A DNA stretch of 64,000 nucleotides from Escherichia coli. GTDB lineage: Bacteria > Pseudomonadota > Gammaproteobacteria > Enterobacterales > Enterobacteriaceae. Where the stretch lies: assembly GCF_003334765.1 (NCBI RefSeq), contig NZ_QOWT01000005.1. One strand, 5' to 3'. The position numbers and the translations under genes were made by a program. The notes under the pieces were generated by a model. It worked only from the letters and a program-made list of their open reading frames with translations, made no database searches and was not told the origin of the DNA. Shown one piece after another: positions 4,464 through 46,223 of the stretch; position 1 is the stretch's first letter; each line of letters begins with the position of its first letter.

Positions 4464-5044
4464 TGTCTACGCTTCTTTATTTACACGGTTTCAACAGCTC
4501 GCCGCGCTCTGCAAAAGCGAGCTTGTTAAAAAACTGGCTGGCGGAACATCACCCTGACGTTGAGATGATCATTCCGCAGTTGCCGCCGTATCCTTCCGAC
4601 GCGGCAGAGCTGCTGGAATCCATTGTCCTGGAACATGGCGGCGATTCGCTGGGTATTGTCGGTTCGTCACTGGGGGGATATTACGCCACCTGGTTGTCAC
4701 AATGTTTTATGCTGCCCGCAGTGGTGGTAAACCCGGCGGTGCGCCCGTTTGAACTGCTGACGGACTATCTCGGTCAGAACGAGAACCCCTACACCGGGCA
4801 GCAATATGTGCTAGAGTCACGCCATATTTACGATCTCAAAGTCATGCAGATTGACCCGCTGGAAGCGCCGGATTTGATCTGGCTGCTGCAACAGACGGGA
4901 GATGAAGTGCTGGATTACCGCCAGGCGGTGGCGTACTACGCTTCCTGCCGCCAGACTGTCATAGAAGGCGGCAACCACGCATTCACGGGCTTCGAAGATT
5001 ATTTCAACCCGATCGTCGATTTTCTTGGTCTGCACCATCTCTGA
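4463..5044 (+). CDS. yqiA: Esterase YqiA (alpha/beta hydrolase)
   Basis: 193 aa ORF overlapping the cpdA stop; GSSLGG nucleophile-elbow motif. Confidence 0.85.
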
Positions 5045-46050: not shown

Positions 46051-46130
46051 GAATATATCCTTTAATTTAAATATCCATTAAAAATATTTATTTGGTTAAT
46101 ATGTTTTTATGAAAGCGTAATTCAGGTCAA

Positions 46131-46155
46131 TGTCACAATTAACCATTGTCACAAT
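46131..46155 (+). promoter_or_regulatory. Direct repeat TGTCACAAT-N7-TGTCACAAT in the yghT/yghS divergent intergenic region; candidate regulator binding site
   Basis: Two identical 9-mers (46131-46139 and 46147-46155) read directly in an AT-rich promoter region. Confidence 0.35.
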
Positions 46156-46223
46156 AAGGTTGAACGGATATTCTGAGCACGGACCACGTAATATTCAATA
46201 CATTATTTGCTGCCGGGTTTTTC

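Follow-up and report, generated by a model that had tools for sequence, protein, structure and literature searches.

The 173-bp spacer between the divergently transcribed genes yghT and yghS of Escherichia coli contains two exact copies of the 9-bp word TGTCACAAT. On balance, judging from the pattern of sequence conservation, we favor the view that the yghS operon has an ordinary sigma-70 promoter (herein P1) with copy 2 as its −35 box, that copy 1 is a weaker upstream element, and that the exact identity of the two copies is a recent coincidence. P1 would be a previously unannotated, ordinary element, with a −35 hexamer TTGTCA (46146 through 46151) and a −10 hexamer TATTCT (46169 through 46174).

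The two copies of TGTCACAAT lie on the + strand at positions 46131 through 46139 (copy 1) and 46147 through 46155 (copy 2) of the window, the whole 64,000-nucleotide stretch of DNA that was analyzed. They are spaced by 16 bp from start to start, leaving a 7-bp gap, and can be extended to CAATGTCACAAT and CATTGTCACAAT, which are identical at 11 of 12 positions; one further copy of TGTCACAAT is present in the window, at 4695, within a coding ORF. The sequence therefore bears out the exact 9-bp repeat, 16 bp apart, described in the initial annotation, and the assignment of the spacer to yghT and yghS is also correct. The repeat starts 81 bp from the ATG of yghT and ends 69 bp before the GTG of yghS. 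yghS (46224 through 46937, + strand; 237 aa, GTG start) encodes a P-loop “dTMP kinase”-like protein and heads the operon that lies downstream of the repeats, with yghR next and then the gene for a 449-aa flippase; yghT (45358 through 46050, − strand) encodes a paralogous P-loop protein of 230 aa. The GC content of the spacer is 30%, compared with ∼50% in the flanking genes.

Short exact repeats are readily found in DNA of this kind. Nine direct repeats that are 9 bp or longer and lie within 30 bp of each other occur in the window, where first-order Markov surrogates give 5.3 ± 2.4, and a spacer of equal length and composition (30% GC) holds such a repeat in 6.3% of simulations. An exact 9-bp repeat at such close range is not unusual and is no more than chance gives; the case for function must therefore rest on conservation and position. 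Tandem Repeats Finder reports no tandem repeat at the repeat region, and Rfam gives no family at gathering score (best matches 19 to 22 bits; gathering scores 50 to 91). Searches of the 64-kb window for TGTCACAAT, for ATTGTCACAAT, a palindromic extension of the repeat word (up to one mismatch), and for two derived patterns, ACAATN5ATTGT (up to two mismatches) and CATTGTCAC (up to one mismatch), returned counts at or below chance. The other promoter region of the gene cluster to which yghS belongs, the spacer between aasR and yghO (56800 through 57190), shows no convincing shared motif; its similarities to the repeat are short ones, TCACAATAA on the − strand and TTGTCAC near 57154.

Within E. 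coli the repeat region is almost invariant. The spacer sequence is present in 4,688 of 5,426 complete genomes, and the 189 bp from 46051 through 46239 are 100% identical to those of E. coli strain 4/1-1. A 48-bp segment (46118 through 46165) is identical in 4,506 of 4,682 E. coli genomes, and the repeats are unchanged in five E. coli representatives spanning the identity range as well as in three divergent (cryptic) Escherichia lineages. The variants that were sampled differ just outside the 9-mers: two genomes have T for C at 46128, and one carries an IS1 insertion. In this last genome (E. coli PCP06171, locus L039) IS1 lies directly to the left of copy 1 (∼46128), so that the yghT side of the spacer is cut off from the yghS promoter and the repeats. 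In another genome, XJ5.2 (H30), the match to the 189-bp segment is limited to its first 56 bases. The proposal that the repeat marks a regulator site stands in part: the spacer is a divergent yghT/yghS regulatory region and the repeat region is under purifying selection, but a direct-repeat site for a dimer does not hold up, as set out below.

YghS homologs are widespread in Enterobacterales. The kinase-flippase module and the divergent yghT/yghS arrangement recur across the order, and the latter is kept in every Enterobacterales locus retrieved. We aligned 115 bp upstream of yghS from seven lineages in which the spacer is of one and the same short type: E. coli, E. albertii, Hafnia paralvei, a Hafnia-like metagenome contig, Citrobacter amalonaticus, Pseudocitrobacter, and Shimwellia. 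TTGTCA and TATTCT are the best-conserved segments of the whole alignment. All six positions of TTGTCA are identical in 7/7 lineages (mean 7.00/7), and TATTCT has a mean of 6.83/7, while the 17 bp between them (46152 through 46168) average only 4.88/7. Copy 2 as a whole scores 6.22/7, a block further downstream (TAATATTCAAT, 46189 through 46199) 5.73/7, copy 1 5.11/7, and the upstream flank (46109 through 46130) 3.73/7.

The two copies of the repeat differ in how well they are kept. Copy 2 matches TGTCACAAT at eight or nine of nine positions in five of the six other lineages, and copy 1 decays with phylogenetic distance. In E. albertii copy 1 reads TGCCACAAT (8/9 to TGTCACAAT; copy 2, 9/9) and in H. 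paralvei AGCCACAAT (7/9; copy 2, 8/9). It is AGTCACAAA in Shimwellia (7/9; copy 2, 6/9), AGCCACATT in the Hafnia-like contig (6/9; copy 2, 8/9), and AACGACAAT in C. amalonaticus (5/9; copy 2, 8/9); in Pseudocitrobacter it is largely lost (4/9; copy 2, 8/9). Conservation of the exact repeat in orthologous promoters, the test on which the initial annotation had staked its regulator site, thus fails, with copy 1 down to between 4/9 and 8/9 in the six other lineages. Within copy 1 the loss is uneven: the TGT columns are shared by two, five, and three of the seven lineages and those of CACAAT (46134 through 46139) by five to seven. The TGT is Escherichia-specific, which makes the exact repeat recent, and CACAAT alone is conserved across genera. 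The exact 9-bp identity is confined to Escherichia, and the element is not conserved as a repeat. The orthologous sites can be written as the single pattern CACAATTAnnCATTGTCAC. The element is absent altogether from the corresponding spacers of Pluralibacter, Erwinia endophytica, Kosakonia, and Serratia proteamaculans, and the regions upstream of distant YghS homologs (Methylotenera, Sulfuritalea, and others; loci L010 through L016) are unrelated and uninformative.

The conserved hexamers have the form of a sigma-70 −35/−10 pair, and it is on this ground that copy 2 is taken to overlap a −35 box. TTGTCA (+ strand) matches the consensus TTGACA at five of six positions; TATTCT (+ strand), 17 bp after it, matches TATAAT at four of six and has the A at position 2 and the T at position 6. 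In a consensus scan of both strands from 45950 through 46350 this pair is the sole sigma-70-like site, and it points at yghS. Copy 2 covers five of the six bases of TTGTCA (46147 through 46151). Setting the −10 hexamer at −12 to −7, we infer a start near 46181, which corresponds to about 3,134,000 on the minus strand of K-12 (NC_000913.3); copy 1 would then occupy −50 to −42 and copy 2 −34 to −26.

The same arrangement recurs in the orthologs. When each was scanned separately, TTGTCA with TAT(T/C)CT at a 16- or 17-bp spacing was the top + strand pair in E. coli and Shimwellia, shared first place in E. albertii, Hafnia, and C. amalonaticus, and ranked second in Pseudocitrobacter. The hexamers are 17 bp apart in six lineages and 16 bp apart in Shimwellia, and the distance from the end of the −10 hexamer to the yghS start codon is constant at 47 to 51 nt. 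An Erwinia-like contig has a related pair, TTGTTA-17-TATCTT, at the equivalent place. Conserved hexamers at a conserved spacing, separated by sequence that drifts, are the footprint expected of a core promoter. Sigma-70 promoters in general (TTGACA, 17 bp, TATAAT) share these features; the site described here differs from a typical one in its weak −10 hexamer, in conservation that runs past the −35 hexamer, and in the extra conserved CACAAT at −47 to −42.

In the model that we propose, the TTGTCA of copy 2 would serve as the −35 element of P1 and drive the yghS-yghR-flippase operon, with sigma region 4 of RNA polymerase contacting copy 2. Copy 1 would be an upstream look-alike under weaker constraint, probably an upstream contact for the alpha C-terminal domain or one half of an operator; we do not take it for the other half of a direct-repeat site. 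The 9/9 identity of the copies would have arisen within Escherichia.

Several observations do not fit a plain P1. Its −10 hexamer is weak (4/6), and Pluralibacter and Erwinia endophytica keep the −10 block without TTGTCA. Conservation passes beyond the −35 hexamer, CATTGTCAC being identical in six lineages, and the CACAAT of copy 1 is conserved where sigma-70 does not read. The conservation of CATTGTCAC and CACAAT suggests an additional constraint, such as a bound protein.

A second conserved promoter candidate also overlaps P1. This alternative or tandem promoter, P2 (46171 through 46199, + strand), would consist of TTCTGA (46171 through 46176) and TTCAAT (46194 through 46199) separated by 17 bp and would start near 46206 (about 3,133,975 in NC_000913.3). 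Were it the operative one, the repeats would be not a −35 box but upstream elements forming an activator site, centered at about −55 and −71; the center of an inverted repeat that bridges the two copies (described below) would fall at −64, in the zone where class I activators bind and LysR-type recognition sites lie. The candidate draws on the conserved downstream block, TAATAT(A/T)CAAT (5.73/7 in the alignment), where most genera have TACAAT 16 to 18 bp after TT(C/G)NNA: Hafnia has TTCTGA-17-TACAAT, Erwinia endophytica TTGAAG-18-TACAAT, and a related contig (L035) TTGAAC-16-TACAAT. The block also persists in the Erwinia-type and Pluralibacter spacers that are without TTGTCA. In E. coli and E. 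albertii, however, the hexamer is TTCAAT, in which T replaces the critical A at position 2; the −35 hexamer matches at only three of six positions, and a scan by standard criteria does not report P2 in E. coli. P2 also gives no reason why TTGTCA and TATTCT should be perfectly conserved and kept at a fixed spacing. We infer that P1 is operative in preference to P2, and we regard the latter as improbable.

A promoter for yghT that uses the repeat was considered and rejected: the reverse complement of copy 2 supplies GTGACA, and E. coli is without a −10-like hexamer there. In H. paralvei and C. amalonaticus (loci L009 and L022), GTGACA agrees with the −35 consensus at five of six positions, and TATTTT or TAGTAT stands 17 bp beyond it, which suggests that in these two species yghS and yghT may have back-to-back promoters with a common palindromic −35 region.

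The spacing of the repeat is also at odds with the kind of site first proposed for it. A period of 16 bp, which had been called typical of dimeric regulator sites, amounts to ∼1.5 helical turns and puts the copies on opposite faces of the DNA. Direct-repeat dimer regulators of the OmpR/PhoB family use a 10- to 11-bp periodicity, and the Pho box consists of two CTGTCAT-type heptamers with 11-bp periodicity that replace the −35 element. A site of this type, at which a dimeric regulator such as an OmpR/PhoB-type response regulator would bind the two copies of TGTCACAAT, has some features in its favor. The repeat is exact in E. coli, and several genera retain a short direct repeat, CACAA...CACAA. 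Each copy is similar to one half of a Pho box (CTGTCAT/CTGTCAC), with the TGTCAC of the heptamer core in direct orientation; one of the copies falls where the −35 element would be, and pitB, which encodes a phosphate transporter, adjoins yghT. Against these stand the 16-bp period and the conservation of the TGT in copy 1 in only two, five, and three of seven lineages, a triplet that a Pho-box half requires; moreover, pitB and yghT are convergent, and pitB has an upstream region of its own. Among the papers searched that name yghS or yghT in the main text, none reports PhoB or another response regulator here. We consider a direct-repeat site very improbable, and a Pho box in particular was rejected on its period (16 versus 11 bp) and on the upstream TGT, which is not conserved outside Escherichia.

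Other known site types were compared with the repeat by reading the sequence against consensus sequences that, like that of the Pho box, were taken from established knowledge. The CRP consensus is TGTGA-N6-TCACA, and the reverse complement of each copy has a perfect TGTGA half-site. The partner half-sites (TTAAT and CCTGA) match at only two of five positions, however, and the two TGTGA copies are direct rather than inverted, so a CRP site was rejected; the main texts naming yghS or yghT report no CRP binding at the spacer. An ArcA site, which requires an 11-bp period, was likewise set aside, as was a sigma-E-type promoter (GGAACTT, 16 bp, TCTGA), for which there is no matching −35 element at the right distance.

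The main rival to a plain P1 takes the conserved unit to be a palindrome rather than a direct repeat. An inverted repeat, ACAAT-TAACC-ATTGT (46135 through 46149), bridges the two copies and is centered at 46142, which is −39 from the predicted P1 start. It could be the operator ACAAT-N5-ATTGT, or more broadly TGTCACAAT-N5-ATTGTCACA, of a dimeric helix-turn-helix regulator; at −39 it overlaps the −35 box, and a repressor or a class II activator bound there would control the yghS operon, possibly together with yghT. Such an operator is compatible with copy 2 also being the −35 box. The half-site centers are 10 bp apart, and both arms are conserved (left 6.2/7, right 7.0/7) around a center that varies among TAACC, TAGGC, TAGTC, and TACCC, that is, AAC, AGG, AGT, and ACC in the middle, as expected for the footprint of a dimeric helix-turn-helix protein. 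C. amalonaticus has perfect 6-bp arms (GACAAT...ATTGTC), conservation passes the −35 hexamer up to CATTGTCAC, and the site is the only perfect match to ACAATNNNNNATTGT in the 64-kb window.

The same features can be read with less weight. Inverted repeats with 5-bp arms are expected by chance in the AT-rich spacer, where two are observed and 2.6 ± 2.1 are expected from composition. The right arm belongs to the −35 region, and its conservation is already accounted for by the hexamer. The left arm is degraded in three of the seven lineages (ACATT in the Hafnia-like contig, ACAAA in Shimwellia, ATATT in Pseudocitrobacter), while the promoter hexamers persist. The window holds no second site, the aasR/yghO spacer of the same cluster included, and among the orthologs retrieved no transcription factor gene is consistently linked to the locus. 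A literature search linked no regulator to the repeat sequence; in the full texts searched, the motif strings occur in unrelated primers only. Weighing these points, we find a palindromic operator unlikely, if the best placed of the alternatives to P1 as a plain promoter.

The inverted repeat resembles the operators of known dimeric helix-turn-helix repressors. Phage 434 operators (ACAA-N6-TTGT) and GntR family sites (TNGT...ACNA) are palindromic operators that overlap the −35 box. Like them, the sequence found here has ACAA...TTGT-type arms about one helical turn apart, an overlap with the −35 hexamer, and a variable central spacer. It differs from the phage 434 operator in having N7 rather than N6 between ACAA and TTGT, and from helix-turn-helix repressor operators in that no cognate protein, no second operator in the window, and no linked regulator gene was found. 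A separate, perfect 8-bp inverted repeat is formed by TGGTTAAT (46093 through 46100) and ATTAACCA (46138 through 46145), the right arm of which falls in the linker between the copies of TGTCACAAT. It is probably due to chance, since it is not conserved in E. albertii (TGGTCAAT / ATTAGGCA).

Published data place the yghS promoter region in H-NS-bound DNA: one study includes yghS in the H-NS regulon and reports a 3.1-fold increase in its expression when SlyA is overproduced (PMC5797941). The AT-rich tract is observed here, and the H-NS binding is taken from that study. Unless H-NS is overcome, one would expect no activity from P1 in the laboratory. A silent, AT-rich promoter would account for the lack of start-site data for yghS: neither yghS nor yghT has an entry in the published supplements of a Cappable-seq study (PMC4782308), of Kim et al. 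2012 (PMC3415461), or of the Urtecho promoter screen (bioRxiv 2020.01.04.894907). The sequence TTATTTGGTTAA (46088 through 46099) fits the loose SlyA consensus TTAN6TAA quoted in PMC5797941 and may be relevant to the 3.1-fold induction. Two further regulators have been reported nearby: FlhDC has a weak genomic-SELEX peak in the spacer, with its proposed box inside yghT (PMC9962212), and a GalR site is predicted inside yghR (PMC5110547).

The interest of the site lies largely in its genomic context. The yghS operon comprises yghS, yghR, and genes for the 449-aa flippase, a 274-aa protein, a YtfJ-family protein, and LptF and LptG paralogs; its convergent neighbors are aasR (fatty acyl-AMP ligase), epi, acpR, and spt (serine palmitoyltransferase), then yghO, the whole spanning ∼46224 through 58330 with the facing genes included. 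aasR-epi-acpR-spt-yghO are the E. coli sphingolipid/dihydroceramide synthesis genes, with yghO as the N-acyltransferase (PMC9386255). Given this context, we consider the P-loop “kinases”, the flippase, and the LptFG paralogs candidate factors in the modification and export of sphingolipids. The immediate neighbors of yghT in Kosakonia and Serratia proteamaculans include ACP and Spt-like genes. K-12 lacks the middle of the cluster, and its yghQ and yghO are truncated by an IS5.

The repeat alone matters little, as the promoter predicted from it is an ordinary one and the eye-catching exact identity is largely coincidental; its modest value is as the promoter footprint of an operon in the E. coli sphingolipid gene cluster. 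That footprint names precise bases (TTGTCA, TATTCT, CACAAT, and the TAATATTCAAT block) and defines a 30-bp probe for any regulator. It is a rather doubtful proposition that ACAAT-N5-ATTGT, or CACAAT...CACAA, is a putative operator that switches the kinase-flippase-LptFG-like half of the cluster and possibly, in the divergent direction, yghT. If true, it would be the first handle on when enterobacteria make and export sphingolipids.

Two further features of the locus were observed. A second direct repeat, also with 16-bp spacing (ATATCCTTTAA at 46055 through 46065 and ATATCCATTAA at 46071 through 46081), lies close to the ATG of yghT on its upstream side; its proximal copy contains the Shine-Dalgarno sequence (AGGA, minus strand), and its distal copy is kept in E. 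albertii and not in Hafnia. In some E. coli genomes (GCA_043186385.1; locus L025, 2501 through 3238) a single chimeric gene of 245 aa replaces yghS and yghR, the upstream spacer and repeats being unchanged. The N-terminal half of its product matches YghS and the C-terminal half YghR, joined at a common DRYPQ motif, a structure that indicates a deletion by recombination between the yghS and yghR paralogs.
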